NCBI GenBank assembly: GCA_964016885.1
Contig: OZ024766.1
Span: 15,252,001 to 15,316,000, forward strand
DNA: 64,000 nucleotides
DNA from: Eledone cirrhosa
Lineage: Eukaryota
Reading direction: 5' to 3'
Positions 2,941-61,384 of this stretch are shown piece by piece. How positions within the stretch are numbered: the first letter of the stretch is position 1; the number at the start of each line of letters is the position of its first letter. A model generated the notes under the pieces. That model saw only the letters and a list, made by a program, of their open reading frames with translations. It did not search any database and was not told where the DNA came from. A program made the translations under genes and the position numbers.

Positions 2941-5930
2941 ATCACCTTGACCGACCAGTCTGTCGGGCGTCCATTCGGCGCCGCTGGTCACAGCACGCCG
3001 TCCATTCCTCTCTGGATTGTGCTTTCCTCATCCATGTAGTCCCAATCATATTCCTAAAATGATCTGCCACCTTCATGGAGGCCTTCCGAGTGGTCGCTTC
3101 CACTCGCACGGGTACCACTCCGCAACTGCGCAGGTCCAGCGATTATCGGTGAACCGGGCGACGTGTCCAGCCCATCTGAACTTGCTGCGTATATATTGCG
3201 CGATGACGTCCCTCACGTCGGACTTCTGTCTGATGACTTCGCTCCTGATGTGCTCTCTCAACGAGATTCCTAGCATTGATCTCTCCATGGCTCTTTGAGC
3301 CGTTACCAGCCTCTGCTCTTCTCTCTTCGTTGTAGCCCAAGTTTCACTGCCATATAACTTTGTAGGTAAAACTGTGCTATTGAAGAAGTTGGCTTGGGCG
3401 ATCTTGTCTAACCTCCCCTTGAGCACATCCCTTATGCCGCTGAACACCTTCCATCCGGCCTTTACTCTCTGCGAGATCAGCCTCTCAATGTCTCAGCGCA
3501 TGTTCACTTCTTGTCCTAGGTAGACGTATTCCTCCACCTCCTCTATTTCATCACCACCAACCACCATTCGACCTGTTGGTATGTTGTCGGACCGCATGAA
3601 GTTCATTTTCATGCTGTTCATCTTGAGGCCTACTGCAGAGCTTTTGATGTCGAGCTCCGTCAGCATGGTCTGAAGCCGATCCGTGGTTTCAGCGATGAGT
3701 ACGATGTCATCAGCGAAACGGAGGTGGGTAAGTATCTCCCCATTGATGGTGACACCGCCTTGCCAGTCAATGCCTCTGATGATCTGCTCGAGACACGCGG
3801 TGAAAACTTTTGGAGAGATCGTATCTCCTTGCTTCACTCCCTTCTCGACCGGCACTCGTACGGGTGATGACAGCAGAGCTGTGTCGGTGGTGCATCCGGA
3901 ATTCGCCTCCTTGAGCAGTTGAACGTATTGCGCCTCGACTCCTTGCCTCTGCAGCGAGTTCAGCACTGCGTTGATTTCGACGCTGTCGAAGGCCTTCTTG
4001 TAGTCTACGAACGCGACGCAAAGAGGCATCTTGTACTCTTTTGCTTGCTCAAGCAGTTGTGTCAGAGTAAATATGTGGTCCATCGTGCTGTAGTTCTTCT
4101 GGAAGCCGGCTTGCTCTTTCGGTTGCGGTTCGTCCAGATGATGTGATAACCTGTTCAGGATTATCTTCGTGAACAGCTTGTACACGTGAGACAGCAGGAA
4201 TATGGGTCAGTAGTTCTTCAGATCTTCTCTATCGCCCTTCTTTTATAGCAGGATGGTATTCGACTCTTTCCACTGCGAGGGTATTCTTCCCTCGTCCAGA
4301 TCGTGTGTGAATCGCTCGGCGAGGATTTCCAGAGCTGCTCTCCGCCTGACTTCAACACCTCCGATGTTATTCCGTCTTTCCCTGGCGCCTTTCCGCTTTT
4401 CATTACACCTACGGCTCTTTCGACCTCACCGACAAGGATGGGTGGCACATTTTCTTCCTGTTGGAGTGACGGCAACGGCTGCACATTCCCGGCAGACTTG
4501 AAGAGCTTGGTGTAGAAGTCTTCGTAAATCTTTTCCATCTCATTCTTGTCGCTGACCGGTACTCCAGCTGTGTTCTTCAGGGTCGTCACCTTCGATCTGT
4601 ACATTGCCATGTCCGTCTCGCATTTCTTGAGGCTCTTCTTTTCCTCTGCGGCCTTCAGGAGCTTCCCCATCCGGTATGCCTCGAAGTCTCTCTTCAGTTG
4701 ACGTATCACTCTGCTGAGAAGGGAATATTCGAGGTGATTTTCAGGTGTCCTCTTCATAATCTTCCTCTTCTCAAGCAACTTCATAGTTTCCTCCCAGACT
4801 CTTCCCTTCCGCTCCTTCGGGAACACACCCTTAGCCTTCCTCAAGCACTCCTTCAGTTTCCTTACCAGTGAGTCGTAGTCAGCGTCTATGCCGTCTCCTT
4901 TACACCACTTTTCCTGCATGATGGCTTCCTGCTGCTGCGCCTCGTTGAAGACCCAGACGCATTCTCCCCTTGCCGCCAAATGCAGCGCCTTCTTCTCCCT
5001 CGTCCGATCGATGACGACCTTCGCCCTCACCAGACGATGATCACTGCCAGTGTTAAATGGCGTTATGACGGAGACGTCCTGCAGTATACGTGGCTTGTCG
5101 ACCAGGATGTAGTCGATCTCGTTTCCGTGCTCAGAATTTAGCGATACCCAGGTCCATCTTTTCTCCTCCTTCTTCCTGAATAGGCTGTTTCCGATGTAGA
5201 GCCGTCTCATCTCCGCCATGGTGACCAGACACTCTCCTCTCATTTCGATATCCCAGGCCGAATTTTCCTACATACTCTTCCCCTTGCCGTCCCTGTCCGA
5301 CCTTTGCGTTGAAGTCTCACATCACGACGGTGTAAGTGGACTTCACAGTTAGCACTTTGTCTAGCTGGCGATAGAATTCTTCCACTTCCTCGTCGTCGCT
5401 GGCATTTGTGGGAGCGTAGGTCTGGATGATCTTGAGGGTGGCCTTCCCTGAGAGGTTTACGTTCAGTACACCAATCCGTGACGATATGAACTGGCAAGAA
5501 GCGACCTTCGAAGCCCATTCCTTGCTTACGATAAACCCTATACCAATCTGGCATCCTCTGCTTTCCCGAGTCTCACGGCGCATCCATCTTGCCATCGGGA
5601 ATTCTCCTCCTTCTTCTGGCGGGTCTCGCACAGCCCTAACACGTCCCACCTGATCTTCTTCTTCTCCTCCATTAGGTGGTTCAGTCCTTGCCCCCCCCCC
5701 CTGCCAAAGACCTGGAGTTGTATGTGCATATGGCAAGGTTAGTCCTGTTCCATGGCGGCCTTCGGGAACCTGTGATTTTTAGCAGCCTCTCGTCGCTCGG
5801 GTCGCACTCCGCCGTCATGGAGCAGCCCGATTGACTCGCAGGGTACTGAGGCCCTTTTCTTCGTGCTGTTTTAACCATAAGATGACGCCATCCCATTGGC
5901 TGGGCGGGCAGGCCGGTACCTCTTCAGTTT
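2941..5930 (-). mobile_element. RTE-clade non-LTR retrotransposon (family A), near full length, frameshifted APE endonuclease + reverse transcriptase
   Basis: APE motifs (ICTYNSRSL, GLCETR, IIQTYAPT, NEIDYIL, GSDHRLV), RT motifs (QAGF, FVDYKKAFDS, KGVKQGDTISP, LRFADDIVL) and an RTE C-terminus (YGSETW..RWAGHVAR..RPLGRPP), split across several frames. Confidence 0.92.
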
Positions 5931-6431: not shown

Positions 6432-9400
6432 ATCATCATCATCATCATCATCATTTAACGTCCGTGTTCCATGCTTGCATGGGTTTGGACGGGAGTTTTC
6501 CCACTTGAGGCAAGAGTGGTTGTCTTGCTCGCATAGGACTGTCTGGCGGGTTTTCTACGGCTGGATGCCCTTCCTAACACCAACCACATTTACAGTGTGG
6601 ACTGGGAGGTTTTTACCGTGTTGCCTACACGGCCACATTACAGTGTGGACTGTCTGGCAGGTTTTCTACAGCTGGATGCCCTTCCTAACACCAACCACAT
6701 TTACAGTGTGGGACTGGGAGGTTTTTACCGTGTTGCCTACACGGTCACATTACAGCGTCGATTGTGTTTTTTTTGTCGTGACACCTACACGATCTCATTT
6801 GTTTCGGCTTGGATTTTGTGGCACCAACATAACTTTACATTGAAAGGGGCGGTGTGGATGGGTGGGGGTGGTGGGACGGGGGTGTATTTTGTTAGAGATG
6901 CCTACTGATTGTAGTAGGTTTTACTTTGTATTTAGGTAACGCGGGTCTTCTCTATTACTGAGTACCGCCAAAGCTCTCGGTCCAGTGACATTGTCTTGGA
7001 GAGGTGTAAGTGTGTGAGGTCGGAATTTATCAGCTCGTCCCAGGTTTTTCTGGGTCTGCCTACTCCGTGGCTACCGTCTATCTTTATTGCCCTGCACTTT
7101 GCTATACAGCTGTCGTCTTTCATGCGCATCACGTGACCATACCAACGTAGCCTTCTCTCGAGTAAACAACATCTGATCCCTCTTATTTCTAATTTTTTCC
7201 TTAGTTGGTTTATGCTTTGCCGTTCGAGTATATTACTATTACACATCCAGCGGAGCATACAAGCTTCGTTCCTCTCTAGTCTGCGTATATCCTCTGCACA
7301 CAATGCCCAGGTCTCACTGCCATGCAACATTGCTGTTTGTATGCAGGCATCATACAACCTGCCTTTTATTTTTAGGGAGAACCCTTTAGCGGCTAATAGT
7401 GGTATAAGCTCTCTGAACTTTTTCCATCCAGTTCTGACACTAGCTACTGTACTTTCGGAGCACCCTCCCCCACTGCTGATTTTGTCACCCAGGTAACGGA
7501 AGCTGTCCACTATTTCTATAGAACCCTCTGCGCAGTTGAAAGAGCTAGTATTTTGTGGGCACTTGCTGCTACTTATTGCACCAAATTACCGGCCACATGT
7601 AAAATCTGTGTTCTTAGTTAGCTTACCTGTGATCCCACTACATCTTTTATGCACCCATACTTTGCATTTGGGACATAAAATGGAGTTTCTACCTACGCCT
7701 TTCCTACACACTGAGCATGGCCATTTCCCGGAAGGGACCGGCGCCTTATTTTCTTTCCTACAAACTAGAACTTTAGTCTTAGCCATGTTAATTTTAAGGC
7801 CTTTTGATTCTAGGCCGTGCTTCCATGTTTGGAATTTCTTCTCTAGCTCGGCCATTGATTCAGCTATGAGCGTTAGGTCATCTGCGTATAGGAGTTCCCA
7901 TGGGCAGCCGGTCTTGAACTCCTCTGTTATAGCCTGAAGAGCAATAATGAATAGTAGGGGGCTAAGAACAGAGCCCTGATGGACACCAACTTTTACGCTA
8001 AACTCTTCACTATATTCGTTGTTAATTCTAACCTTGCTCACTGTTTCTTTATACATGGCTTGTATAGCTCTCACAAGCCATTCATCAACACCTAGTTTTC
8101 TAAGAGCCCACCATATAATGGAACGGGGGACTCTGTCGAAGGCTTTCTCCAAGTCGACAAAGGCTAAGTATAGGGGTTTACTTTTAGCTAGGTACTTCTC
8201 CTGTAGTTGTCGTACAATGAAAAGAGCGTCTGTGGTACATTTGCCTGACATAAACCCGAACTGCATTTCATCTAGATCGATTCTCTCTCTCATTAGTTGC
8301 ACTATTACTTTTTCCGTGACCTTCATGACCTGGTCGATTAATTTAATCCCTCTATAGTTACTCCTATCTAGGGCGTCTCCTTTACCCTTGTAACAGTTAA
8401 TGATGATGCTGCTACGCCAGTCCTTCGGAACAACCCCATTCTGTATGACTTGGTTTACTATCCGGGTGACCATGGTGTGTCCCACCGTTCCAGAGGCCTT
8501 CAGCATCTCAGCAAATATTTCCGAAGGCCCAGCCGCCTTACCCGTCTTCATATCTTTGATTGCCTTACTTATTATACTACCTTCAACTAACACTGCTGGT
8601 CCCTCTATTGGATCGATCTGGGGGAGACTATCCTTCTCCCATTTATTCTCCTCATTTAGTAGCCTCTCGTAGTGACACTTCCAAGCTACCTTCTTTTCAG
8701 CGTCAGTGATGGCGAGTACGCCATCATCATTTAGTACACACTTCTCCCCAACAATATCATGGTTTTCCTTGACACATTGCCTAGCAATCCTGAACACCTC
8801 ACGTTTTTGGTCCTCGCGTTGTAGAACATGCTTGAACTTTCTTTCCTCTGCTTCCCTTCTTGCGAAGTACACTTGTCTCCTAGCTTCCCTCCTGGCCACT
8901 TGATAGTTTTCTCTACTTCCCCCATCCCGCCATACTTTCCAAGCCTGCTTTTTGGCCTTAATCGACTCCTCCACCTTACTGTTCCACCACCATGTTACTC
9001 TCCTCCTGCCTATAGGCCTGCTCCGGCCACAGACTTCGTCTGCCGCCAGCAGCAGGTTTGCTTTCAGGAATTCCCACTGTCCCTCTATATTGTCCGACTC
9101 TAAATGCTCTTCCTTACTGTCGAAAGCATCAAGTAATATACTTTGAAATTTATTTCTGGCTGTGGGGTCCTTTAGCTTCCATATTTTTCTCTTGAGGATA
9201 GTCCTCTTCTGCTGTCGAGTACGTCTCGTCCTGACTATGAGGTCGCTAATTATCAGTCTATGTTGGGAGGTGCATTCTTCATGGGGGAGGGATTTAGTGT
9301 TTACAACAGACACTCTGTCACGTCTTCTGGTAAGGATATAATCTACCTGGCTGGTATGTTCCCCTGATCTGTAGGTGATCAAGCGATTGTCTCGTTTTTT

Positions 9401-9940
9401 GAAGTTAGTGTTACAGATATATTTCTTTTAAAGTCTTATTTTAATTATTCTGTCGTTTACTCTATTTACGTCTATTATCTTATCCACCCATTTTTCTGCT
9501 AACATGATTCCTACCCAACCCAGCCCATTGTCATTTCCCAGCCCATTGTCATTTCCCAGCCAGAAAAGCTTATAGCATCGTTTTTACCCACAATGAATCT
9601 AGCAGACCCGCCCCTCCATCTGGTCTCTTGGATACAGCAAACATCAACCTCCTTACGTTCAAGCATTTCTACAACCTCGTTAGAGCGGCCTTTTAAGGTG
9701 CCTACATTCTTGGTACCAACTCTGAAGTTTTGGATTGCGTTTGGTGGGTAGGGCGCAGGGAGGGGTGAGGGGGATGGGGTTGGGGTTATGTTGGTTATCC
9801 GCGGCCGCAACAAAGAGGAGGAGGCCTTGCCCTTTCGTCCGGCAGCATGACGTGAATTTGTCGTTATCTTTGGCATTGTCTTCGAGTGTCCAGATTCTTC
9901 AGACTCTCCAGAAATTACTTAGTCCATCCATCATATCGAA
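6432..9940 (-). mobile_element. RTE-clade LINE (family B, with PHD-like finger), near full length but disrupted
   Basis: APE start (RVGTKNVGTL..CCIQETRW), internal APE deletion near 9420, RT (FVDLEKAFDRV, GVHQGSVLSP, LLYADDL), CxxC..CxxC..HxxC..CxxC insert, C-terminus with RWYGHV..GRPRKTW, 3' UTR with a ~110 bp duplication, and a (CAT)n tail at 6432-6453. Confidence 0.93.
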
Positions 9941-10190: not shown

Positions 10191-10244
<54 letters not shown>

Positions 10245-10245
<1 letters not shown>

Positions 10246-10722
10246 CGGAAAAGATGAAACGATATTTCATTTCCCACTCTTAGTACGGCTGTTACTTAAA
10301 TATAAGTATGTACACGTACACACATATATGCATACCGACGTACAGTAGTATGTATATATATATATACATACATGCACACATATATATATGCATGTATGGA
10401 TTCACCGAATATTTATTATAATGCTCGGTGTGTTTGTAAACAAACATCCCGTATTAAGCCGTAGTGTCTAGCAACCACCGTTGCTCGTTTGTAGCCCGTT
10501 AATATGCATAAGGTAAGTATATACGTTCAACAATCTGGCAGGAAGGTATACGTTGCTGACGATAGCTAACAAGCTTGAAACTAGTACAGCGTTCCTTTGT
10601 CAGTGTTGAACAAACGAGCAACGGTGGTTGCTAGACACTACGGCTTAATACGGGATGTTTGTTTACAAACATTATAATAAATATTATAATAAATATTCGG
10701 TGAATCCATACGTGCATATATA
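10245..10722. mobile_element. Non-coding hammerhead-bearing element (family A) with ~100 bp inverted arms; Penelope pLTR/retrozyme-like
   Basis: 10398-10492 is the reverse complement of 10611-10707 (small indels), and the spacer contains a hammerhead motif. Related sequence recurs at 20400-20810 and 37970-38095. Confidence 0.65.
10550..10592 (+). ncRNA. Type I minimal hammerhead ribozyme motif (family A)
   Basis: ACGTTG-CTGACGA-TAGCtaacaaGCTT-GAAA-C-ta-GTA-CAGCGT. Stem I is ACGTTG/CAGCGT, the core is CUGANGA..GAAA, stem III is palindromic (ACTAGT) and the cleavage triplet is GUA. Confidence 0.8.
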
Positions 10723-11282
10723 TATTAATCTGTTATTTTAATAAATATTTTCTCTACAGTTCTTATATATTTGATATATATTTATCCTTATTGAGCCCTC
10801 TTTGGATTTTAGTCTTCAATTTTATTATTATTACTATATATATATATATATATACACATATAATTGTGTATTCACACATTATCTTAGTAATGATATAATA
10901 ATTTTAGTAAATTGTTCAAAATTCTTCATTAACCATTTTGGTAGAAACCCAGCCAAAATAGGTTCTCGTTATATGGAAATGGTTCCTATCTAAATTAAAG
11001 TCTTCCAACGAAATTCTATATAACAACCATATGTTATGTTACTATGTTAGTAATTAACTAACAATTGTGATAAATAGCCCAAATTATTCATAATTAATTG
11101 AAATACGAGGTTCATAATTATAATAAAATCTTCGAACAGGCTACGAAGCCGGTAAACCTTAAAGGTACGCAACACACACATCGCTATAGCGTTTCACCTG
11201 CCAATTCATTCCTCAATCATTACATAGATGTGTGTGTATGTAATAAATATTTTGTATTGTGTCTATTTATGAATATGTATGA

Positions 11283-13340
11283 GTAGATGTGTGTGTGTGT
11301 GTGTGTGTGTCCCAGTAGATGGGTGTGTATGTAACACAGTAGATGTGTGTGTATATAACACAGTAGATGTGTGTGTATATCACACAGTACATGTGTGTGT
11401 ATGTAACTCAGTAGATGTGTGTGTATGTAACCCAGTAGATGTATGTGTATGTAACTCAGTAGATGTGTGTGTATGTAATACAGTAGATGTGGGTATGTAA
11501 CACAGTAGATGTGTGTGTATGCAACATAGTAGATGTGTGTATGTAACACAGTAGATGTGTGTGTATATAACACAGTAGATGTTTGTGTATGTAACACAGT
11601 AGATGTGTGTAACACAGTAGATGTGTGTGTATGTAACACAATAGATGTGTGTGTATATAACACAGATGTGTGTGTATGTAACACAGTAGATGTGTGTGTA
11701 TGTAACACAGTAGATGTGTGTGTATGTAACACAGTAGATGTGTGTGTATGTAACATAGTAGATGTGTGTATGTAACACAGTAGATGTGTGTATTGTAACA
11801 CAATAGATGTGTGTGTATGTAACACTGTAGATCTCTGTATATGTAACACAGTAGATGTGTGTATGTAACACAGTAGATGTGTGTGTATGTAATACAGTAG
11901 GTGTGTGTGTATGTAACACAGTAGATGTGTGTGTATGTAACACAGTAGATGTGTGTGTATGTAACACAATAGATGTGTGTGTATATAACACAGTAGATGT
12001 ATATGTATGTAACTCAGTAGATGTGTGTGTATGTAACACAGTAGATGTGTGTGTATGTAACACAGTAGATGTGAGTGTATGTAACTCAGTAGATGTGAGT
12101 GTATGTAACCCAGTAGATGTGTGTAACACAATAGATGTGTGTGTATATAACACAATAGATGTGTGTGTATGTCACACAGTAGATGTGTGTGTATGTAACA
12201 CAGTAGATGTGTTTGTATGTAACACAGTAGATGTGTGTGTATGTAACACATTAGATGTGTGTGTCTGTAACACAGTAGATGTGTGTGTATGTAACACAAT
12301 AGATGTGTGTGTATATAACACAGATGTGTGTGTATGTAACACAGTAGATGTGTGTGTATGTAACACAGTAGATGTGTGTGTATGTAACACAGTAGATGTG
12401 TGTGTATGTAACATAGTAGATGTGTGTATGTAACACAGTAGATGTGTGTATTGTAACACAATAGATGTGTGTGTATGTAACACAGTAGATGTGTGTATGT
12501 AACACAGTAGATGTGTGTGTATGTAATACAGTAGGTGTGTGTGTATGTAACACAGTAGATGTGTGTGTATGTAACACAGTAGATGTGTGTGTATGTAACA
12601 CAATAGATGTGTGTGTATATAACACAGTAGATGTATGTGTATGTAACTCAGTAGATGTGTGTGTATGTAACACAGTAGATGTGTGTGTATGTAACACAGT
12701 AGATGTGAGTGTATGTAACTCAGTAGATGTGAGTGTATGTAACCCAGTAGATGTGTGTAACACAATAGATGTGTGTGTATATAACACAATAGATGTGTGT
12801 GTATGTAACACAGTAGATGTGTGTGTATGTAACACAGTAGATGTGTTTGTATGTAACACAGTAGATGTGTGTGTAACACAGTAGATGTGTGTGTATGTAA
12901 CACAATAGATGTGTGTGTATATAACACAGTAGATGTGTGTTTATGTAACACAGTAGATGTGTGTGTATGTAACCCAGTAGATGTGTGCGTATATAACCCA
13001 GTAGATGTGTGTATGTAACACAGTAGATGTATGTGTATGTAACCCAGTAGATGTGTGTGTATGTAAGACAGTAGATGTGTGTGTATCTAAGACAGTAGAT
13101 GTGTGCATGTAACACAGTAGATGTGTGTGTATGTAACACAATAGATGTGTGTGTATGTAACACTGTAGATCTCTGTATATGTAACACAGTAGATGTGTGT
13201 ATGTAACACAGTAGATGTGTGTGTATGTAACACAGTAGGTGTGTGTGTATGTAACACAGTAGATGTGTGTGTATGTAACACAGTAGATGTGTGTGTATGT
13301 AAGACAGTAGATGTGTGTGTATGTAACACAGTAGATGTAT
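11283..13340. repeat. 24-bp minisatellite (GTAGATGTGTGTGTATGTAACACA)n with higher-order block duplication
   Basis: Direct tandem unit visible throughout; the 8-aa periodic ORFs reflect it. A run of variant units at ~11855 recurs at ~12489. Confidence 0.97.
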
Positions 13341-14182
13341 ATATAACTAAAGTGTAACGTAAGTTAAAATGGACGACAAAATGACTTTAACTTGTTTTTT
13401 AACAATTGATGGTGGAAAAGATTTTAAATTGTCTTAACTCAGACCATAAAGGGCTGCAACACATGGTGTTTGACACTCTTACCGGCTACATAGCCAGGGA
13501 TTCTATTTTACGGGGTCCGGTTACATAGCTTCTTCTTAAAAATCTTCCAACATAATTTTATACAAGAACCACATGTTAAGTTACTAATAAAATAATTAAT
13601 AATTAAAAACTTCAGTAAATCCTTCAAATGATATCTCAGTAATGAAATAATTAATAATTGTTATAAATACCTCAAAATTCCTCATTAATTAAACCCCAGA
13701 CAGGTAAAAACTCCAGAGTCTTTCAGTCGGACATGAAACAAATTCATTTCTAATGGAAAAAGTAAAGATTGTAAAGTCAGCCAAGGGAGATCACTCTCAG
13801 CGACTTATTGTAAATCTTGTTCGTGAATTAATCCGGATTAAATTATTCTGGTGTATTTTGTGTGGAGGAAACCGGGTTTACGCGGTGATAGCGCGTAATT
13901 CAAGAACGTATGGTTCGTGAGACCGGGTGGTCTGTGCGTTGGCCCCTTGAACAAAACATTTCTCCCAGCTGGCAAAACTAATAAGTTGTACCAGTAATTA
14001 TAGGGTAACGTTGTTACATAGAATTGTCACACTGAATCTCTCTGAGAACAATGTCAACGGTACACGTGTCAATGAAATACCCAGACGCATTATAATATAA
14101 GATGGATTCTATATGTATTTAAAAAGGAAGGCATGTCACACGTTTTGTCTCGCTGAATCTCCCTGTGAACTATGTAAATACT

Positions 14183-15458
14183 AGTGACTATCAGACATAG
14201 TGTATCTCGGACTACATTATCTAATGTACAGTACAGTAGTTAGTATTAGTGGTTATCAGACATAGTATATCTAGGACTACATTATCTAATGTACAGTACA
14301 GTAGTCAGTATTACTGGCTATCAGACATAGTGTATCTAGGACTACATTATCTAATGTACAGTACAGTAGTTAGTATTAGTGGCTATCAGACATAGTGTAT
14401 CTAGGACTACATTATCTAATGTACAATACAGTAGTTAGTATCAGTGGCTATCAGACATAGTGTATCTAGGAATACATTATCTAATGTACAGTACAGTAGT
14501 TAGTATTAGTGGCTATCAGACATAGTGTATCTAGGACTACATTACCTAATGTACAGTACAGTAGTTAGTATTAGTGGCTATCAGACATAGTATATCTAGG
14601 ACTACATTATCTAATGTACAGTACAGTAGTTAGTATTAGTGGCTATCAGACATAGTATCTCTAGGACTACATTATCTAATGTACAGTACAGTAGTTAGTA
14701 TTAGTGACTATCAGACATAGTGTATCTAGGACTACATTATCTAATGGACAGTATAGAAGTTAGTATTAGTGGTTATCAGACATAGTATATCTTGGACTAC
14801 ATTATCTAATGTACAGTATAGTAGTTAGTATTAGTGGCTATCAGACATAGTGTATCTAGGACTACATTATCTAATGTACAGTATAGTAGTTAGTATTAGT
14901 GGCTATCAGACATAGTGTATCTAGGACTACATTATCTAATGTACAGTACAGTAGTTAGTATTAGTGGCTATCAGACATAGTGTATCTAGGACTACATTAC
15001 CTAATGTACAGTACAGTAGTTAGTATTAGTGGCTATCAGACATAGTGTATCTAAGACTACCTTATCTAATGTACAATATAGTAGTTAGTATTACTGGCTA
15101 TCAGACATAGTGTATCTAGGAATACATTATCTAATGTACAATATAGTAGTTAGTATTACTGGCTATCAGGCATAGTGTATCTAGGAATACATTACCTATT
15201 GTACAGTGTAGTAGTTAGTATTAGTGGCTACCAGACATAGTGTATCTAGGACTACATTACATAATGTACAGTACAGTAATCAGTATTAGAGGCTATCAGA
15301 GATAGTGTATCTAGGACTGCATTATCTAATGTACAGTACAGTAGTTAGTATTAGTGGCTATCAGGCATAGTGTATCTAGGACTACATTATCTAATATACA
15401 GTACAGTAGTTAGTATTAGTGGCTATCAGGCATAGTGTATCTAAGACTACATTATCTT
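14183..15458. repeat. 65-bp tandem repeat, ~19-20 copies
   Basis: Unit TAGTGGCTATCAGACATAGTGTATCTAGGACTACATTATCTAATGTACAGTACAGTAGTTAGTAT; period 65 (actacattat at 14341 and 14406). Confidence 0.97.
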
Positions 15459-15963: not shown

Positions 15964-16023
<60 letters not shown>

Positions 16024-16116
16024 GTAATTCCGTCGGAAAAGTGCAGGAAAAAAGAGTGCTCTATGTAGGCAACAGAGCTTAATTATTATTATGTAATAAA
16101 CAACATAAGGCAATTA

Positions 16117-16176
16117 TTCCATTTACCAGTGGTTTCTTAAAAGCAAAAGGTTTTGCTTTCAATCCTCAGAATGAAA
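16117..16176 (-). ncRNA. Type I hammerhead ribozyme motif (family B)
   Basis: Minus strand: TTTCATT-CTGAGGA-TTGAAAGCAAAAccTTTTGCTTTTAA-GAAA-CCACTGG-TA-AATGGAA; same sequence as the copy at 19585. Confidence 0.8.
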
Positions 16177-16331
16177 AAATCCTGGTTTGTTTATTGAATT
16201 TGGATTTTAAAAAACAAAAATGCAAACTATATGAAAGTGAGGCTGGAGAAGGGAGAAGGAAAGGAAAAATAAAATAAAACTACACATGCAAACACACACA
16301 CAAAAACACAAAAGCATACATACACACACAC

Positions 16332-16396
<65 letters not shown>

Positions 16397-16639
16397 CACA
16401 TATATATAAAAAAAAACATTGACACTCCTATGATAAATCAACCGCCTTGAAATCCTTCCCTGCTCTTTACTTCTGCTACGGTTTTTATTTTGCTGATTCT
16501 ACGTTCTGTACTCTTGTATATTTACTTATTTTTTTCTCCCTTACCTCCCCTTATATTTTACCTTTTCTTATGCCCCCCCCCCCATATATTCTTTTTGCCT
16601 TGCCCTTCACATACCTATGTGTATGTGTATGTATATTTG

Positions 16640-16712
<73 letters not shown>

Positions 16713-16789
16713 GTGTGTGTATGTGTATGTGTGTATATATATGTATATATTTGTGTGTGTGTATGTATATGTGGATAAACCAGGGTTTT

Positions 16790-16849
16790 TTTCATTCTGA
16801 AGATTGAAGGAAAAATTTTTTGCTTTTAAGAAACCACTGGTGAATGGAA
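16790..16849 (+). ncRNA. Hammerhead motif (family B), probably inactive variant
   Basis: TTTCATT-CTGAAGA-(weakened stem II)-GAAA-CCACTGG-TG-AATGGAA. The cleavage triplet is GUG, which violates the NUH rule. Confidence 0.65.
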
Positions 16850-17050
16850 TAATTGCCTTATGTTGCTTTATTACTTTACTACTATATATACGTATATGTA
16901 AGGTTCATATGAATTATCTAAGACTGAGTCTTACACATACACACATGTATGTGTGTGTGTATGTGTATGCATGTGTATATATATGTATGTATATGTATGT
17001 ATGTATATATATATATATATATATGTGTATATATATATATGTATATATAT

Positions 17051-18629
17051 GCCTTCGACAGAGTCCTCCGCTCCATTATCTGGTGGGCTCTTAGAAAACT
17101 AGGCGTTGACGAATGGCTTGTGAGGGCTATACAAGCCATGTATAAAGAAACAGTCAGCAAGGTTAGAATTAACAACGAATATAGTGAAGAGTTTAGCGTA
17201 AAAGTTGGCGTCCATCAGGGCTCTGTTCTCAGCCCACTACTATTTATTATTGCCCTTCAGGCTATAACAGAGGAGTTCAAGACAGGCTGCCCATGGGAAC
17301 TCCTATACGCAGACGACCTGACACTCATAGCGGAATCAATGGCCGAGCTAGAGAAGAAATTCCAAACATGGAAGCACGGCCTAGAGTCAAAAAGACTTAA
17401 AATTAACCTGGCTAAGACCAAAGTTCTAGTTTGTAGGAAAGAAAACAAGGCGGTGGTCCCTTCTGGGAAATGGTCGTGCTCGGTGTGTAGGAAAGGCGTA
17501 GGTAGAAACTCCATTTTATGTCCTAAATGCAAAGTATGGGTGCATAAAAGATGTAGTGGGATCACAGGTAAGCTAACGAAGAACACAGATTTTACATGTG
17601 GCCGGTGCTCTGGTGCAATAAGTAGCAGCAAGTGCCCACAAAATACTAGCTCTTTCAATTGCGCAGAGGGTTCTATAGAAATAGTGGACAGCTTCCGTTA
17701 CCTGGGCGATAAAATCAGCAGTGGGGGAGGGTGCTCTGAAAGTACTGTAGCTAGAGTCAGAACTGGTTGGAAAAAGTTCAGAGAGCTTATACCACTATTA
17801 GCTGCTAAAGGGTTCTCCCTAAAAATGAAAGGCAGGTTGTACGATGCCTGCATACGAACAGCAATGTTGCATGGCAGTGAGACCTGGGCATTGTGTGCAG
17901 AGGATATACGCAGACTAGAGAGGAACGAAGCTTGCATGCTCCGCTGGATGTGTAACAGTAATATACGTGAACGGCAAAGCATAAACGAACTAAGGAAAAA
18001 ATTAGAGATAAGAGGGATCAGATGTTGTTTACTCGAGAGAAGGCTACGTTGGTATGGACACGTGATGCGCATGAAAGTCGATAGCTGTATAACAAAGTGC
18101 AGGGCAATAAAGATAGACGGTAGCCACGGAATAGGCAGACCTAGAAAAACCTGGGACGAGCTGATAAACTCCGACCTCACACACTTACACCTCTCCAAGA
18201 CAATGTCACTGGACCGAGACCTTTGGCGGTACTCAGTAACAGAGAAGACCCGCCTAGCCAGTAGGCATCTCTAACAAAATACACCCCGTCCCGCCACCAC
18301 CCCCACCCATCCACACCACCCCGTCCTATGTAAAGTTATGTTGGTGCCGCGCCATCCAGGCCGAAACAAATGAGATCGTGTAGGTGTTACGACAAAAAAA
18401 CACACAGTCCACGCTGTAATGTGGCCGTGTAGGCAACACGGTAAAAACCTCCCAGACCCACACTGTAAATGTGGTTGGTGTTAGGAAGGGCATCCAACTG
18501 TAGAAAACCTGCCAGACAGTCCTATGCGAGCAAGACAATCACTCTTGCCTCAAGTGGGACTACCCCCGTCCAAACCCATGCAAGCGTGGAACACGGACGT
18601 TAAATGTTGATGATGATGATGATGATGAT
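17051..18629 (+). mobile_element. 5'-truncated RTE LINE family B inserted in a (TA)n tract
   Basis: Open frame from AFDRV through the RT, PHD-like finger and C-terminus, then 3' UTR and (GAT)n tail; closely matches the copy at 35801-37960. Confidence 0.95.
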
Positions 18630-19252
18630 ATATGTGTGTATATGTATGCGTGTGTATGTATATATGTATGTGTGTCTGTGTTTGTGTTTGTATTTGGTTG
18701 TGCGTGTTTATGATATGTACGTATTTGTATGTGTATAATTGTTTAGCTATGTATGTATATGTGTGTGTATGTATACGTATGTGTGTGTGTGTGCGTTTAT
18801 ATTTATGTATATATATGTATATATATATATATATGTGTGTGTGTATATAATTACATATACATATGTGTGTGTATATATTGTATACGTGTGCGTATTTGTG
18901 CATGTATGTGCATGTATGTGTTTATGTATTTGTATATGTATATTTATGTGTGAGAGTGTGTGTATGTGTTTACGATTTCGTACGTATGTATACGTGCATT
19001 TGTGTGTATTACTTACCACGCGTGTCTGTCCAGTTAGCTGCCTTATGTAACGGTGTCAAAAAATTTTTTTAATATATATATATATTTTTTCTTATATTTA
19101 TTTGCGTGTGTGAATATGTAGAGGAGTGCATTTATGTATGTGTATGTACGTATGTATATATGTATGATTGTGTGAATGTATGTATGCATATATGTGTGTG
19201 TGTATGGCTATGTTTGTGTATGTGTATGCTTGTACACACATATATATATGTA

Positions 19253-19307
<55 letters not shown>

Positions 19308-19406
19308 ATATGTGTGTGTGTATGTGTATGTATGCGTGTATGTATGTGTATATGTGTATGTATGTGCATGTGTATATTTGTGTATGTATATATATATGTA
19401 TATATG

Positions 19407-19437
<31 letters not shown>

Positions 19438-19584
19438 ATGTATGCTTTTGTGTTTTTTTGTGTGTGTGTTTGCATGTGTAGTTTTATTTTATTTTTCCTT
19501 TCCTTCTTCCTTCTCCAGCCTCACTTTCATATAGATTGCATTTTTGTTTTTTAAAATCCAAATTCAATAAACAAACCAGGATTT

Positions 19585-19644
19585 TTTCATTCTGAGGATT
19601 GAAAGCAAAACCTTTTGCTTTTAAGAAACCACTGGTAAATGGAA
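19585..19644 (+). ncRNA. Type I hammerhead ribozyme motif (family B)
   Basis: Stem I TTTCATT/AATGGAA, core CTGAGGA, 11-12 bp stem II, GAAA, near-palindromic stem III ACCACTGGT, GUA triplet (predicted cleavage after 19637). Confidence 0.8.
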
Positions 19645-20164
19645 TAATTGCCTTATCTTGTTTATTACATAATAATATTTTACATGGTAGACATTATTTG
19701 AATTTTGAAAATGTGAGACCAGAGAAATTGCTTCATGTGACACTGTAAGAAAACATTAAAAAATGAAATGCATATCTTCTTCTTTATCATTAAGTATGTC
19801 AGCAGCAGCAGCACCACACACACACACATATATATATACAGAGAGAGAGAGAGAGAAGAGAGAGAGTAGTTAATAATAAATACAAAGACCAAAATCTAGA
19901 GAGGGCTCAATAAGATAAGAGTTTTATGTATATATATATATATACATATATATGTATCATCATCATCATCATCATCATTTTACGTCCACTTTTCCCTGCT
20001 TGCGAGGGTGGGACGGAAACTGATTCTGGTTTGATTTCTACAGCTGGATGCCCTTCCTACCACCAACCTTATTTACAGTGAGTGCTGGGTGCTTTTTTGC
20101 TGTGGCACCTCCACGACCACTTTGCAGTGGAATGATAGAGGCCCAAGTCCCTATCATCTCATTT

Positions 20165-20291
20165 CTACAGCTGAGTAAACTGGAGCAATGTGAAATAAAG
20201 TGTCTTGCTCAAGGAAACAACACATCACCCGGTTTGAGAATTGAACTCACAACCTTTCGATTGCAAGGCCAATGCTCTAACCACTAAGCCA
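20165..20291 (-). mobile_element. tRNA-derived SINE, family 1 (CORE-like body)
   Basis: Minus strand ATGGCTTAGTGGTTAGAGC (A box) ..GAGTTCAATTCTC (B box) ..TCCTTGAGCAAGACACTTTATTTCAC. Other copies lie near 23080, 26640, 27100, 27470, 29545, 31890 and 46830. Confidence 0.8.
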
Positions 20292-20515
20292 TAGAGAGAG
20301 AGAGAAGTGAGAGAGTAGTTAATAATAAATAGAAACACCAAAATCTGGAGAGGGCTCAATAAGATAAGAGTTATATATATATATATGTATATATATATAA
20401 GTTGAAAAAAATGAAAACGAAATTTCATTTCTCACTCTTAGTATGGCACTTACTTAAATGTAAGTATGTATGTATACGTACATACATATATGTATACGGA
20501 CGTACAGTAGCATGC

Positions 20516-20546
<31 letters not shown>

Positions 20547-20698
20547 TACAGGTACACATACATATATGCACGCATCAGTTTAGCGGACGCTTATTATAAC
20601 GCCGCTTTGTTCGTTTGTCAACAAACTGAACAGCCTGAATTTATGCCATACGGTGTTAAGGCAACCACGTCACCTTTTTGTTCAACACTGACACAGGA

Positions 20699-20741
20699 AC
20701 GATGTACTAGTTTCAAGCTTGTTAGCTATCATCAGCACCGT
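20699..20741 (-). ncRNA. Type I minimal hammerhead ribozyme motif (family A, second copy)
   Basis: Minus strand: ACGGTG-CTGATGA-TAGCtaacaaGCTT-GAAA-C-ta-GTA-CATCGT; stem I ACGGTG/CATCGT. Confidence 0.8.
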
Positions 20742-21296
20742 TTACCCATCTGCCAGATAGTTGAACGTTCGAAAGTATATTCTTTCCTTATCAAAATTAA
20801 CGGCTGAGCAGCCTAATTTGCATATTGAGTGAGTTAAATCGGTCAGGCATCAAATTTGTGTTCTTTTATTTTGTTTTTGATATGCTACCAAGGATTGGGG
20901 GTTAGAGTTGTGTTTGCATTCCTGTCCAGTTGTTATATGGTTTGGATGGCTATTCTAGTAGGCAGATATGAAGCAGGAGGTGCTATTGTTGCTGACATAC
21001 TAGGGATGGTAAGTAGGTTAAGGTATCAAATTACCAGAGGGGTCAGTCATCACCCCACCCCCCGTTCATATATGTTAAAGAATTTGTTTATTTTTTTGTT
21101 TATTTGAACTTTGTTTATTTGTTTGAACTACATAGCTATATATCCAGGCTGTGTATTATTAGAGAAGGTGATTCTTGTGTAACTATGTAAGGATGCATTT
21201 AGTCATTATGTTCAGCTCTAGGTGGAAGTTAGCATGGAATGTGTTAACTATCTAATCTAAGGAAAGTTTTAGATATTTTATGCATACAAGTATTAA

Positions 21297-25303: not shown

Positions 25304-26171
25304 CCCTTTAGCATTTACATTACCCTGTATTTACTATTGTATTTTCATGGTAAAGGCTTTACCTCACATAATTATCTCACATAACATTTACATTACCCTG
25401 TATTTACTATTGTATTTTCATGGTAAAGGCTTTACCTCACATAATTATCTCACATAGCATTTACATTACTCTGTATTTACTATTGTATTTTCATGGTAAA
25501 GGCTTTACCTCACATAATTATCTCATAACATTTACATTACTCTGTATTTACTATTGTATTTTCATGGTAAAGGCTTTACCTCACATAATTATCTCATAAC
25601 ATTTACCTTACTCTGTATTTACTATTGTATTTTCATGGTAAAGGCTTTACCTCACATAATTATCTCACATAGCATTTACATTACTCTGTATTTACTATTG
25701 TATTTTCATGGTAAAGGCTTTACCTCACATAATTATCTCATAACATTTACATTACTCTGTATTTACTATTGTATTTTCATGGTAAAGGCTTTACCTCACA
25801 TAATTATCTCACATAACATTTACATTACTCTATATATACTATTGTATTTTCATGGTAAAGGCTTTACTTCACATAATTATCTCACATAACATTTACATTA
25901 CTCTGTATTTACTATTGTATTTTCATGGTAAAGGCTTTACCTCACATAATTATCTCACATAACATTTACCTTACTCTGTATTTACTATTGTATTTTCATG
26001 GTAAAGGCTTTACCTCACATAATTATCTCACATAATATTGAATCTACAAGATTTTAATATTATTTATTTTGAGAAGAAAACCTTAACATCAGTATGAGTG
26101 GCCAGTTGCAGCTGATTTGAACAGAGGTTAGAGAATTCTGGCCGGATATGGCCAGTTTAAATGCTAAAGGG
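25304..26171. mobile_element. piggyBac-like MITE expanded by an internal 71-73 bp tandem array (~10 copies)
   Basis: TTAA-CCCTTTAGCATTTA … TAAATGCTAAAGGG-TTAA; array at ~25312-26035. Confidence 0.88.
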
Positions 26172-28280: not shown

Positions 28281-29454
28281 CCCTTTAGCATTTAAACCGG
28301 TTGTATTCGGCCAGAATTTTCTCAACTCTTTCTATTCAAACTGGCTGTAACTGGACACTCATACTTATATTAAGGTATTGTTCTCAAAATAAATAACATC
28401 AAAATCTCATAGATTCGATATTATGTGAGATAATTATGAGGGCGGTGGTTTGGCAGTATCGGTAGAGGGTCGGACGCCATGCTTTGCTGCATAGAGTTAC
28501 GGCCCTTTATGATTTTAGTTCAATCCCGCCGAGGTTAACTTTGCCTTTCATCCTTATGGGGTTGATAAAATAAAGTACCAGTCACTCACTGGGGTCGATT
28601 TAATCGACGTTCACCTACCCCAAAATTGCTGGCCTTGTGCCTATATAAAAAACCATTATGTGAGATAATTATGAGGTAAAGCCTTTACTGTGTCAATACA
28701 ATAGTATATATAGAGTAATGTAAATGTTATGTGAGATATTATGTGAGGTAAAGCCTTTACTGTGACAATACAATAGTATATATAGAGTAGTGTAAATGTT
28801 ATGTGAGATATTATGTGAGGTAAAGCCTTTACTGTGTAAATACAATAGTATATATAGAGTAATGTAAATGTTATGTGAGATATTATGTGAGGTAAAGCCT
28901 TTACTGTGACAATACAATAGTATATATAGAGTAATGTAAATGTTATGTGAGGTATTATGTGAGGTAAAGCCTTTACTGTGACAATACAATAGTATATATA
29001 GAGTAATGTAAATGTTATGTGAGATATTATGTGAGGTAAAGCCTTTACTGTGACAATACAATAGTATATATAGAGTAATGTAAATGTTATGTGAGATATT
29101 ATGTGAGGTAAAGCCTTTACTGTGACAATACAATAGTATATATAGAGTAATGTAAATGTTATGTGAGGTATTATGTGAGGTAAAGCCTTTACTGTGACAA
29201 TACAATAGTATATATAGAGTAATGTAAATGTTATGTGAGATATTATGTGAGGTAAAGCCTTTACTGTGACAATACAATAGTATATATAGAGTAATGTAAA
29301 TGTTATGTGAGGTATTATGTGAGGTAAAGCCTTTACTGTGAAAATACAATAGTATATATAGAGTAATGTAAATGTTATGTGAGATATTATGTGAGGTAAA
29401 GCCTTTACTGTGAAAATACAATAGTATATATAGAGTAATGTAAATGCTAAAGAG
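28281..29454. mobile_element. piggyBac-like MITE with a nested SINE and an internal 72-bp tandem array (~10.5 copies)
   Basis: TTAA-CCCTTTAGCATTTA … TAAATGCTAAAGAG-TTAA; gcctttactg recurs at 28681, 28753, 29041 and 29401. Confidence 0.88.
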
Positions 29455-31714: not shown

Positions 31715-32345
31715 CTGACAAAGAATGAAAGAAAATTTAATGAAAGTCAATTACTATGAAATGAAATGGATCTCAGTCAGTTGAAATGATGATTGATCCA
31801 GTGGGAAAAGACAAATGGTTTTCTATATACTAAACTTTTGAAATATCTTTTACGTTATCTCTAAATTATTCCATATTTCCAGTAGAGGCATGTGGCCTAG
31901 TGTTAAGTGTGTTGGACTTACAATCATAATGTCATGGGTTCGATTTCTGGGGTGGGTTGTGTGTTGTGTTCTTGAGCAAAACACTTCATTTCACGTTGCT
32001 CCAGTATACTCTGCTGAAAATGAGCACCAGCAATAGCTGTGGAGGGTGTAACCCTGCAATGGACTGATGTCCTGTCCAGGAGGAAGTCTTGTACTCACAG
32101 TCGCTTTATGCCATGAAACCAGGATAAGCATTGGCCTAATGAGCCTTCAGGCTTGAGACAGTATAGTCCTATACGAACGAGACACGGTCACCCGACCAAT
32201 CTTGCCTCAATTGGGACAACTCCCGACTAACCCATGCTAGCATGGAAGATAGATGTAAACGATGATGAGGATGATGATGATATAGCAACCTCGGCCTCAA
32301 CAGTGACAGCAACAACAACGGCATGATAATTAGAAATCTACTTAC

Positions 32346-32489
32346 TATAGGTTTTTACTTGGCAATCCGGTCCAGTCCATCCTTCTTCACAGCCATATGG
32401 GCAAGCCCCAGTTTGTTGATGGCAGTCAGCATCGTTTAAACAATGGCATTGCTTGTTACAAGTATATCCATACCATTGAGATGCACAAC
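32346..32489 (-). CDS. EGF-like exon (CASQWYGYTCNKQCHCLNDADCHQQTGACPYGCEEGWTGPDCQ)
   Basis: acatag| … |gtaagt; 144 nt; not in the supplied ORF track. Confidence 0.9.
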
Positions 32490-33606
32490 CTATGTTAAAA
32501 GTTAGAATTTATCACACTGATGGACTACATTTCCACAGTTCTCTCTCATCTACAGTTAATTGTTTCTACTATTTGGCACAAGGTACCAGTAATACACAGG
32601 GGTAATTGCTGAATTACCTCAGTGCATTACTGGAACTTTATTTTATTGACCCCCCCATAAGAATGAAAGGCAAACCTTGGCGGGTTTGAAATCAGAACGT
32701 AAAGGTCCATAACTCTATGCTGCAAAGCATGGTGTCTGACACTCTACGGATTACTGCCAATCCAATAATAATAATTGTTTCTACTTTTGGCACAAGGCCA
32801 GCCAGCAATTACCCCCAGTGCATTACTGGTACTTTATTTTATCGACCTCCGTAAGAATGAAAGGCAAAGCTAACTTCAGCAGGATTTGAACTCAGAACGT
32901 AAAGGGCCATAATTCTATGCTGCAAAACATGGTGTCTGATGCTCTACGGATTACTGCCAGTCCAATCCAGCAATTACCCCCAGTGCATTACTGGTACTTT
33001 ATTTTATCGACCCCTGTAAGGATGAAAGGCAAAGTTAACCTCGGCGGGATTTGAACTCAGAACATAAAGGGCCGTAAACATGATGTCTGACACTCTACCG
33101 ATTACTGCCAGTCTCACATAATTATCTCACCTAATATTATGGTCTGAGTTCAAATCCCGTCGAGGATAACTTTACCATTCATCCTTACGGGGTCGATAAA
33201 ATAAAGTACCAGTAATACACTAGGGTAATTGCTGGCCTTGTGCCCCCAAAAGTAGAAACATAATATTGAATATATTAGATTTTGATATTATCTATTTTGA
33301 GAACATTATCTTAACATTAATAAGGGCGGTGGGTTGGCAGTATCAGTGGAGGGTCGGACGCCATGCTTTCCAGCATAGAGTTACGGCCCTTTACGATCTG
33401 AGTAATGCACTGGGTAATTGCTGGCCTTGTGCCCAAAGTAGAAACAATTATCTTAACATTAATATGAACGGCTGGTTACAGCCAGTTTGAACAGAAAGAG
33501 GTGAGAGAATTCTGGCCAGATACAGTCGCTTTAAATGCTAAAGGGTTAACAGTCACAGTTTGTAGAGATTAACAACTAAAGTTTGAATGAATAAAGATCA
33601 ACAGAC

Positions 33607-33771: not shown

Positions 33772-33826
<55 letters not shown>

Positions 33827-35739: not shown

Positions 35740-35800
<61 letters not shown>

Positions 35801-35803
<3 letters not shown>

Positions 35804-37960: not shown

Positions 37961-38099
37961 ATATATATATATATTTCTCACTCTTAGTGCGGCTGTTACT
38001 TAAATATAAGTATGTATACGTACATACATATATGTATACAGGCGTACAGTAGTATGTATATATATATACATACATGCACACATATATATATGTACGTAT

Positions 38100-61319: not shown

Positions 61320-61384
61320 TATTTTATCTGATGAAAGAGCACCAAGATTGACTTGGTCGCCCTTGAAATATATATAATAAAATA
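61320..61384 (+). ncRNA. Type I hammerhead ribozyme motif (family C)
   Basis: TATTTTAT-CTGATGA-AAGaGCACCAAGattgaCTTGGTcGCcCTT-GAAA-TATATATA-ATAAAATA: 8-bp stem I, long stem II, palindromic TA stem III, AUA triplet. Confidence 0.78.

Follow-up and report, generated by a model that had tools for sequence, protein, structure and literature searches.

Three hammerhead ribozyme motifs and a field of TA/TG microsatellites share one locus of Eledone cirrhosa. The question is whether the microsatellites form the body of a self-cleaving retroelement, as a sequence-only reading had proposed, or the ground on which retroelement ends have landed. All positions refer to the window, which is the whole stretch of 64,000 nucleotides that was analysed. 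The favoured explanation, with a probability of about one half, is a non-coding insertion of the 3′ ends (pseudo-LTR pieces, pLTRs) of a Hydra-type Penelope-like retroelement (PLE) carrying an interior. The PLE origin of these ends is very probable, and their assignment to the Hydra type is likely. PLE ends around non-coding DNA are known; the locus would add a new example rather than a new self-cutting 1.2-kb element.

Ribozymes

A descriptor scan of the window detected three type I hammerheads, which were called with our own descriptor and by comparison with published motifs:

16117..16176, minus strand: left hammerhead, triplet GUA, predicted cleavage after 16124
16790..16849, plus strand: middle hammerhead, triplet GUG
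19585..19644, plus strand: right hammerhead, triplet GUA, predicted cleavage after 19637

Strict stem thresholds gave exactly these three and none in each of 100 dinucleotide shuffles, while loose thresholds gave seven matches against a shuffle mean of 0.03. The hammerheads were not detected by Rfam at the gathering score, nor among its 92 matches at E up to 10. Rfam matches to miRNAs lay far under the gathering scores and were discarded as microsatellite artefacts.

Stem III of the right hammerhead is palindromic, with 4 bp and a 1-nt loop. The form of the ribozyme agrees with the table of Hydra-clade ribozymes (Craig et al. 2021, PMC8557442). In this table, inspected by eye, stem III is of the form AC...GT in all 26 rows and has 4 bp with a 1-nt loop in 17 of them; ACCA-N-TGGT is found in one row of the 26, that of the Octopus bimaculoides family, Hydra-1_Obim. 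Stems I and II, likewise compared by eye, are unlike those of Hydra-1_Obim, so the locus would represent another family.

Folded as single strands, the outer ribozymes were weakly better than shuffles (z -1.9) and the middle one gave z +0.5; since a weak result is expected for dimer-dependent motifs, these scores were not counted as evidence. When paired, two intact copies favour a double hammerhead (-31.2/-31.4 kcal/mol), whereas for the middle and right copies the double hammerhead (-24.3 kcal/mol) is not the best structure (MFE -28.0 kcal/mol). The intact ribozymes are predicted to be dimer-dependent, and the copy at this locus would be unable to excise a unit-length RNA.

Inverted arms, tail and junctions

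The outer hammerheads are embedded in the following features:

15974..16019, no strand: perfect (TA)23 to which the left arm is joined by its 3′ end, probably the target site
16021..16083, minus strand: 63-nt "tail", on the left arm only
16055..16078, minus strand: 7-bp GCTC...GAGC hairpin followed by ACT, within the left tail
16084..16325, minus strand: left inverted arm, a PLE 3′ end, with TG repeat, T-rich tract and ribozyme, then 40 nt to the common end
16343..16390, no strand: perfect (TA)24, placed at the left arm's inner junction
19434..19677, plus strand: right arm, a PLE 3′ end, ending 40 nt past cleavage without a tail

In their non-microsatellite part, the arms agree in 239 of 245 columns (97.6%); their divergence was estimated at 1.2% (95% CI 0.3-3.6). 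With the microsatellite included, 350 nt align at 89% identity. Scan and arm alignment together confirm that the outer hammerheads face outward in inverted arms. The further claim that the inverted units end at the same nucleotide holds for the inversion and fails for the shared end, because the match breaks off at 16084/19677 and the left arm alone runs 63 nt further. As this extension reaches the (TA)23 tract, the element starts near 16021 and not at 16083, as had been stated. A second copy of the tail was not found within the window, nor were copies of the arms in its other 60 kb; a scan of genome contigs, in a collection that holds no animal genomes, gave no match to the arm family.

A TG-rich repeat of about 50 nt is common to both arms and would therefore have travelled with the element. 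Arm homology ends at the inner TG/TA boundary, which counts against the favoured explanation, and the interruptions of the right microsatellite are missing on the left.

Published PLE insertions have an inverted 5′ copy, an optional tail on one end and ribozymes in the pLTRs. Of this layout, the inverted copy adjoining the insert, the outward ends and the one-arm tail are found here. Both arms share an end 40 nt past cleavage, compared with 36, 46 and 47 nt in three tail-less Hydra consensi inspected by eye (PMC8557442). At 63 nt, the tail exceeds the 30-40 bp given in the literature, which weighs against the favoured explanation, yet it is like the Hydra consensi. Target site duplications (TSDs) of PLEs measure 8-10 bp and are frequently missing or masked by microsatellite. 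The target of Hydra-clade PLEs is (TA)n (PMC8557442), which is present at the left end and beside the middle stub. No TSD of 8-10 bp was found, the outer junctions showing no more than 4 nt, and on the right flank TA extends over 4 nt at the most, without a (TA)n tract; both points speak against the favoured explanation.

Long, near-identical inverted arms around a non-coding interior could also be produced by a DNA transposon of the foldback or MITE type whose inverted repeats are long, or by a local inverted duplication, the ribozyme then being incidental. Such an origin is very improbable, given the asymmetric ends with their one-sided 63-nt extension, the lack of a fixed TSD, a ribozyme, end position and hairpin that match PLE ends by eye, and the presence of a third copy of this end, a stub in direct orientation.

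Downstream hairpin

The hairpin starts 46 nt past the left cleavage site and is followed by GCACT at 65 nt. Its motif gives two matches in the window against 0.09 expected and is absent from the middle and right copies. By eye, a similar arrangement is seen at the 3′ ends of three of six Hydra consensi (39-48/60-70 nt); a fourth has the hairpin at its 5′ start, and 14 identical nt are shared with each sea-cucumber family (PMC8557442). A hairpin 39-48 nt past cleavage would be present in Hydra-type ends of four phyla, at the boundary between tail-less and tailed ends. This positional relation is our own comparison and not a published criterion, and it covers Hydra-type ends. A description of such a hairpin was not found in the accessible parts of the literature searched. 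The hairpin is a candidate RT binding or start signal, and in this respect goes slightly past what was found in print.

Middle stub and 1.2-kb spacing

16777..16874, plus strand: middle stub, 98 nt, same family at about 90% identity, whose hammerhead (16790-16849) carries GUG and has a disrupted pair in stem II, without a tail, running into TATATA

According to the sequence-only reading, the locus (family B) belongs to a non-autonomous family whose conserved unit, about 1.2 kb long, lies between two direct ribozymes; the unit would have a microsatellite body, be cut out by self-cleavage and possibly spread TA/TG repeats. Its description of a third, more diverged hammerhead with GUG in the orientation of the right one is correct. 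Its spacing is close as well: once the retrotransposon insert is taken out, the middle-to-right distance is 2795 - 1579 = 1216 nt, and the hammerhead cores of family C are 1222 nt apart. The chance of an agreement within 6 nt is 0.4% for a range of 200-3000 and 2% for 900-1500, in a comparison that was chosen post hoc with n=2. In favour of such a family are also the spacers of 0.9-1.5 kb in Pen1_Av (Arkhipova et al. 2013, PMC3846280) and, in family C, the weaker hairpin that follows the first ribozyme at 74 nt. A further point is the composition of the B body, the most microsatellite-rich 1.1 kb of the window (none of 233 other segments reaches its 65%), in which the TG polarity agrees with the strand of the ribozyme.

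These points are set against the state of the middle copy, which is short, tail-less and evidently older, as it differs from the right copy at 8 of 96 sites where the outer arms differ at 1 of 96 (Fisher p=0.035). It also lacks 127 nt upstream, and 390 nt upstream of it are found inside the arms as well. Hammerheads cleave according to the NUH rule, which GUG violates; the middle ribozyme is therefore predicted to be uncleavable. Two near-identical direct pLTRs were thus not found. Between the B and C bodies no common sequence was detected (34 of 200 shuffles score equally well), and microsatellite makes up 65% of the former and 19% of the latter. Ten comparisons of B and C bodies and ends gave nothing above shuffles except a weak pyrimidine-tract match inside C (8/200), and a 23-nt look-alike island was not recovered as best alignment. 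The two C ribozymes are themselves 79% alike and diverge 15 nt past cleavage. With a defective 98-nt stub and unrelated bodies, the 1.2-kb self-cleaving unit is unsupported, and a family of this kind is improbable. What survives of the idea that microsatellites sit within a self-cleaving retroelement is the association of retroelement-derived ribozyme sequence with TA/TG repeats.

Interior

Between the arms, the following components were distinguished in addition to the stub:

16409..16613, no strand: pyrimidine-rich unique spacer without a relative in the window
16614..16776, plus strand: TG/TA microsatellite block (TG 30, CA 0)
16875..17050, plus strand: microsatellite field, first part
17051..18629, plus strand: unrelated 5′-truncated non-LTR retrotransposon with RT, PHD finger and (GAT)n tail
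18630..19445, plus strand: microsatellite field, main part, 72% alternating purine-pyrimidine (TG 160, CA 14), without PLE coding trace

The retrotransposon insert, which had been recognised as such beforehand, we take to be an RTE on the basis of its motifs and its (GAT)n tail; a 96.3% identical relative lies at 35760-37410.

After removal of the RTE, 12 frames of the interior gave no match to a PLE coding motif. An autonomous partner was likewise not seen in the window, where no PLE domain was found in 20 long and 144 short ORFs (144 of 158 listed were searched), and this counts against the favoured explanation. A 37-codon frame before the outer ribozymes had been considered as a GIY-YIG C-terminus from its motif and was rejected: it gave no Pfam or PHROG match at E up to 10 and, read through its stop, no match among 8 candidates in a protein database. 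The single match among 1.84 billion representatives (E 4.7e-4) was a five-fold repeat protein without a nuclease domain, its score being summed over the repeats. Hydra-type ORFs, inspected by eye, end differently and farther upstream (PMC8557442).

Instead of being carried, the interior might be resident host microsatellite DNA that gathers (TA)n-targeted insertions, with the stub, the RTE and two young PLE ends arriving separately, or with the ends coupled at two nicks. The left arm lies between (TA)23 and (TA)24, as if a lone insertion had divided a single tract of the host, and TG/TA repeat is found on both sides of the middle stub. The region holds 10 of the 42 (TA)6+ tracts of the window, for which reason a (TA)n-targeting family would cluster here anyway, and four of five inspected RTE 3′ ends in the window adjoin (TA)4 or longer. 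Interior pieces have no second copy in the window. A short motif at 16425, the left arm's inner end, recurs in the body at 19053 and nowhere else in the window; it was judged weak, since its T-run and TA edges recur elsewhere. The flanking of the left arm, the clustering and the single-copy interior all count against the favoured explanation; a resident interior is further in line with the lack of a TSD around the whole and with a report (Frangieh et al. 2024, PMC11167929) that nicks can be made by a PLE protein close to its own pLTR. On the other hand, it requires two copies that are 1.2% apart to have arrived within 3.3 kb and nowhere else in the other 60 kb, and to have reproduced the exact head-to-head, one-tail layout of single PLE events. 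In Octopus vulgaris, young PLE copies are sparse (336 in 31 families), a figure that serves as an order-of-magnitude guide for the present host; together with the small divergence of the arms, this makes two independent young insertions unlikely. A resident interior is somewhat unlikely and is the main rival. For the microsatellites, a landing field seems a better description than a dedicated body, and (TA)n targeting accounts for their association with the ribozymes at least as well as microsatellite spreading does.

Proposed origin and meaning

Most likely, both arms derive from one insertion that was mobilised in trans and carried microsatellite-rich DNA. While the anatomy, identities, motif positions, (TA)n junction and lack of an ORF are observed, the route proposed for this insertion, with its protein partner, single-event origin and movement of the interior, draws on that anatomy and on published PLE biochemistry. 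The protein of Poseidon PAc cuts and extends both strands at AT-rich DNA in vitro; the tail is defined by two sites at which RT begins, both within a stem-loop downstream of the ribozyme, and ribozyme cleavage is dispensable for insertion (PMC11167929). At the present locus, an RT/GIY-YIG protein encoded elsewhere would bind an RNA with ribozyme and downstream hairpin, make nicks in both strands where a (TA)n tract has its edge, and prime reverse transcription twice. cDNA from the outer site would give the short left arm with its 63-nt tail; cDNA from the inner site would give the long tail-less right copy and continue through about 1.7 kb of microsatellite-rich DNA with the older stub. The two cDNAs would meet in head-to-head orientation within a (TA)n palindrome, and the RTE would be a separate insertion into the same TA/TG field.

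A carried and a resident interior predict opposite empty sites, which bears on how inverted PLE structures form and likewise goes slightly past what was found in print. A much wider proposal, with little probability on the present data, is that octopod Hydra-type PLEs spawned non-coding elements in the form of a length-constrained module of about 1.2 kb, with two direct ribozyme ends and an exchangeable microsatellite-rich spacer (B and C being independent cases). These would be moved in trans by a hairpin conserved in cnidarians, echinoderms, crustaceans and cephalopods, and would carry and seed TA/TG microsatellites. If true, such a module would help to explain the repeat-rich cephalopod genome; if real genome-wide, it would place ribozyme-bounded elements in a size class not known before and give microsatellites a route by which to spread. 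A paper on repeats in the octopod lineage makes no mention of ribozymes.

Comparison with known systems

Plant LTR retrozymes carry a type III ribozyme in two LTRs, whereas all three ribozymes described here are of type I. Animal non-LTR retrozymes (Cervera and de la Peña 2020, PMC7229834; Li et al. 2026, 10.64898/2026.07.22.740005) are alike in being non-coding and PLE-derived with a type I ribozyme; their units measure about 300 bp (51-972 bp) and are arrayed head to tail, at least two successive ones having a complete ribozyme. Here, in contrast, there is no tandem unit, the spacing is 1216 nt and the second ribozyme is defective (GUG).

The metazoan minimal PLE hammerheads (Cervera and de la Peña 2014, PMC4209133) share a long helix II, an extra base after the core, a short palindromic helix III needing a dimer, and high diversity within a genome. 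Pairs on opposite strands 100-700 bp apart are reported from metazoans; a cephalopod case was not found in the accessible part of that paper.

In Adineta vaga, non-coding DNA has been captured between solo pLTRs, and in Pen1_Av unrelated spacers precede the last pLTR (PMC3846280). Pen1_Av and Pen2a_Av resemble the locus in having two direct and one inverted repeat, a one-arm tail and a non-coding, host-like interior. They differ from it by full pLTRs and TSDs of 8-10 bp, as the inner direct copy is here a stub of 98 nt that has diverged, and a TSD of that length was not seen.

Poseidon PAc belongs to another clade and has its RT starts 85-92 nt past cleavage (PMC11167929), compared with about 40 and 103 nt proposed here. 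With Hydra-clade PLEs (PMC8557442), the locus shares a sense-strand type I ribozyme near the 3′ end, a T-rich upstream region and, by eye, the form of stem III, an end at about 40 nt past cleavage and the downstream hairpin; a (TA)n junction is found at its left end. Their single ORF, comprising an RT (DKT) together with GIY-YIG at the C-terminus, has no counterpart at the locus, which is thus best described as derived ends of such an element.

Hammerhead Ribozymes and Arms of Family B

Judged from its sequence, family B (the three-hammerhead assembly at about 16083-19677) most likely represents ends of a Hydra-type Penelope-like element (PLE) in the canonical inverted layout, with a microsatellite field between them. 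The hammerheads located by a type I descriptor scan are the following:

16176..16117, minus strand, left type I hammerhead
16790-16849, plus strand, middle type I hammerhead
19585-19644, plus strand, right type I hammerhead

With strict stems (minima of 6, 6 and 2 bp) the whole window has no match besides these 3 (0 in 100 shuffles), and looser stems give 7 matches versus a shuffle mean of 0.03. The inverted plus direct arrangement proposed in the sequence-only reading is thus borne out by one minus-strand and two plus-strand motifs. An Rfam search did not detect the family B hammerheads at the gathering score or at E values up to 10.

The inverted outer arms, i.e., the left and right copies, are identical in 239 of 245 columns (substitutions 1.2%, 95% CI 0.3-3.6), and a read-through RNA would form a 240-bp duplex between them. 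Their match ends 40 nt beyond the cleavage site, at 16084/19677; the claim that the outer units end at the same nucleotide holds for this common end, but the left arm goes on for 63 nt (16021-16083) and reaches a perfect (TA)23 at 15974-16019. The middle copy (16777-16874) has 98 nt in common with the arms at about 90% identity. It carries 8/96 substitutions, whereas the arms differ from each other at 1/96 of these sites (p=0.035), which agrees with the earlier description of a more diverged third copy with a GUG triplet, in direct orientation with the right one.

Tail and Conserved Hairpin

A predicted 7-bp hairpin (GCTC...GAGC, then ACT) begins in the left-arm extension 46 nt beyond cleavage and is absent after the middle and right ribozymes; the window has two such patterns, with 0.09 expected. 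Among the six new Hydra-clade consensi in Craig et al. 2021 (PMC8557442), three stop 36-47 nt past cleavage, and the other three are longer and contain this hairpin at 39-48 nt. One of the short-ended consensi starts with the hairpin, the Octopus bimaculoides consensus starts with a weaker look-alike, and the family B tail shares 14 identical bases with each of two sea-cucumber families of that clade; this comparison was made by eye and covers Hydra-clade ends. Since published ends stop short of the hairpin or pass through it, the common end 16084/19677 is the tail-less PLE end and the 63-nt extension the PLE tail. The conserved hairpin, of which no description was found in the literature searched, is the most useful by-product of the family B analysis.

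A second hairpin motif lies at 63112-63140, inside 63056-63240 (minus strand), between two (TA)n tracts and without a clean ribozyme upstream; this segment is probably the decayed end of another Hydra-type family. A 107-bp repeat (19844-19950, 20293-20399, 10782-10830) adjoins (TA)n, carries a variant hairpin-end motif and may comprise solo tails or 5' starts of some PLE family.

Origin of the Interior

No PLE coding sequence was found in the interior (16391-19433, between the arms) or among the window ORFs scanned, so that family B is classed as derived ends rather than as an autonomous member. The interior is interrupted by a 5'-truncated RTE-like insert at 17051-18629, which has a (GAT)n end and 96.3% identity to a copy at 35760-37410. 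The body between the middle and right ribozymes is 65% alternating purine-pyrimidine, a level matched by 0 of 233 other windows, and its main block (18630-19445) has TG 160 versus CA 14. A TG-rich repeat of about 50 nt is common to both arms, so some repeat travels with the element; wholesale microsatellite spreading would go beyond this. A motif of a 7-mer, T-run and TA occurs only at 16425 (minus strand, inner end of the left arm) and 19053 (plus strand, body), either by chance or as a trace of older homology.

A single event that carried the interior along is given a probability of about one half. Two cDNAs would be made off one RNA, a short tailed one primed from the (TA)n side and a long tail-less one primed from the opposite side, and both would be joined within the (TA)24 at 16343-16390. 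In vitro, PLE protein is described to cut and extend both strands at AT-rich DNA, with two internal start sites setting the tail; ribozyme cleavage is dispensable for insertion there and seen only with protein (Frangieh et al. 2024, PMC11167929). One event is favored by the layout of family B, which is the canonical PLE one, and by the reported sparseness of young PLE copies in O. vulgaris (336 in 31 families). Against it, no target site duplication of 8-10 bp was found around family B, the longest being 4 nt.

That the interior is resident host DNA around which insertions landed is less probable in view of this layout and sparseness, but several features point to it. The left arm is flanked by two long perfect TA tracts, like one host tract with a lone insertion, arm homology stops at the inner TG/TA boundary, as expected of a lone insertion, and no interior piece has a second copy within the window. 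Furthermore, the family B region has 10 of the window's 42 (TA)6+ tracts, and 4/5 RTE ends adjoin TA too, which makes independent landings plausible.

Five of the six longest perfect (TA)n tracts (at least 21 units) lie at mobile-element junctions, which suggests that insertion lengthens or splits such tracts:

10203-10244, (TA)n tract at element junction
15974-16019, (TA)n tract at element junction
16343-16390, (TA)n tract at element junction
33776-33823, (TA)n tract at element junction
35743-35800, (TA)n tract at element junction

The 1.2-kb Spacing and Family C

Removal of the insert leaves 1216 nt between the direct sites, as anticipated (about 1.2 kb). The further proposal of a self-cleaving unit of this length had drawn on a second ribozyme pair:

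61320-62606, family C, pair of type I ribozymes (AUA) in direct orientation, spaced 1222 nt

The agreement of 1216 and 1222 nt has a chance of 0.4-2%, picked after the fact, and of the two family C ribozymes only the first is followed by a hairpin, a weaker one at 74 nt beyond cleavage. Against a common unit, the bodies of the two families are unrelated, that of family C being 19% microsatellite, its two ribozymes are 79% alike, and the retrozyme definition (tandem units, complete ribozymes) fits neither family. Co-folding of two intact copies predicts a double hammerhead (-31.4 kcal/mol versus -22.2 for two monomers), and the family B ribozyme would thus be of the dimer type; for the middle and right pair another fold is preferred. 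Hammerheads as a rule cleave at NUH triplets. Given the middle GUG, no more than one cut would be possible in plus-strand RNA of family B, and this copy cannot yield a monomer or circle of 1.2 kb. With two cases, the 1.2-kb unit is a lead, and an improbable one.

Sequence Context

Two further type I ribozymes of another family are found at 10556 (plus) and 20735 (minus), in 73% identical inverted stretches (10496-10725, 20558-20803), the former within a local palindrome. The window is repeat-rich animal DNA, probably of an octopod, with several RT-bearing non-LTR elements and many TA tracts, which the (GAT)n tails of the RTE-like elements adjoin. A PHD finger directly follows the RT in all four RTE-like ORFs and is common in their marine relatives. 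Named relatives of the insert RT are from Octopus bimaculoides (65% identity), Hydractinia (53-54%) and Branchiostoma (45-47%); a 72% match labelled bacterial MAG is probably contamination.

7589-9427, 17051-18271, 36202-37977, 39531-41000, RTE-like ORFs with PHD finger
42766-45069, gypsy-type pol ORF (RT, RNase H, integrase)
53406-56135, hAT transposase ORF, 909 codons
23350-23514, 32341-32508, minus strand, EGF-like and DSL-like exons, probably parts of a host gene with much of the window in its introns
57587-58523, decayed tandem C2H2 zinc-finger repeats
46832-46889, 20131-20292 and further copies, probable SINE (tRNA-related dispersed repeat)
11296-13338, 14182-15457, 25312-26039, 28656-29446, 49875-50915, minisatellite arrays (24, 65, 72-73, 61 bp)

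Comparison with Known Elements

A scan of a genome-contig collection without animal genomes gave 0 matches. The retrozyme sample in Li et al. 2026 (bioRxiv 10.64898/2026.07.22.740005) lists no mollusc, and the giant squid paper counts 235 Rfam hammerhead matches, with no structure given alongside. According to Craig et al. 2021 (PMC8557442), PLE insertions take the form of partial tandems, to which an inverted 5' copy and, at one end, a tail are often added, and their ribozymes sit in pseudo-LTRs (pLTRs); the Hydra clade, with one family from O. bimaculoides, targets (TA)n. In the Hydra-clade ribozyme table of that paper, counted by eye, an AC...GT stem III is present in 26/26 rows, 4 bp with a 1-nt loop, as in family B, in 17/26, and the ACCA-N-TGGT stem in 1/26, the octopus family. 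Opposite-strand ribozyme pairs 100-700 bp apart are described by Cervera and de la Pena 2014 (PMC4209133). Two direct pLTRs and one inverted around host DNA, non-coding cases included, are reported by Arkhipova et al. 2013 (PMC3846280), with unrelated spacers of 0.9-1.5 kb in Pen1_Av. Family B adds another example of an already known kind of structure.
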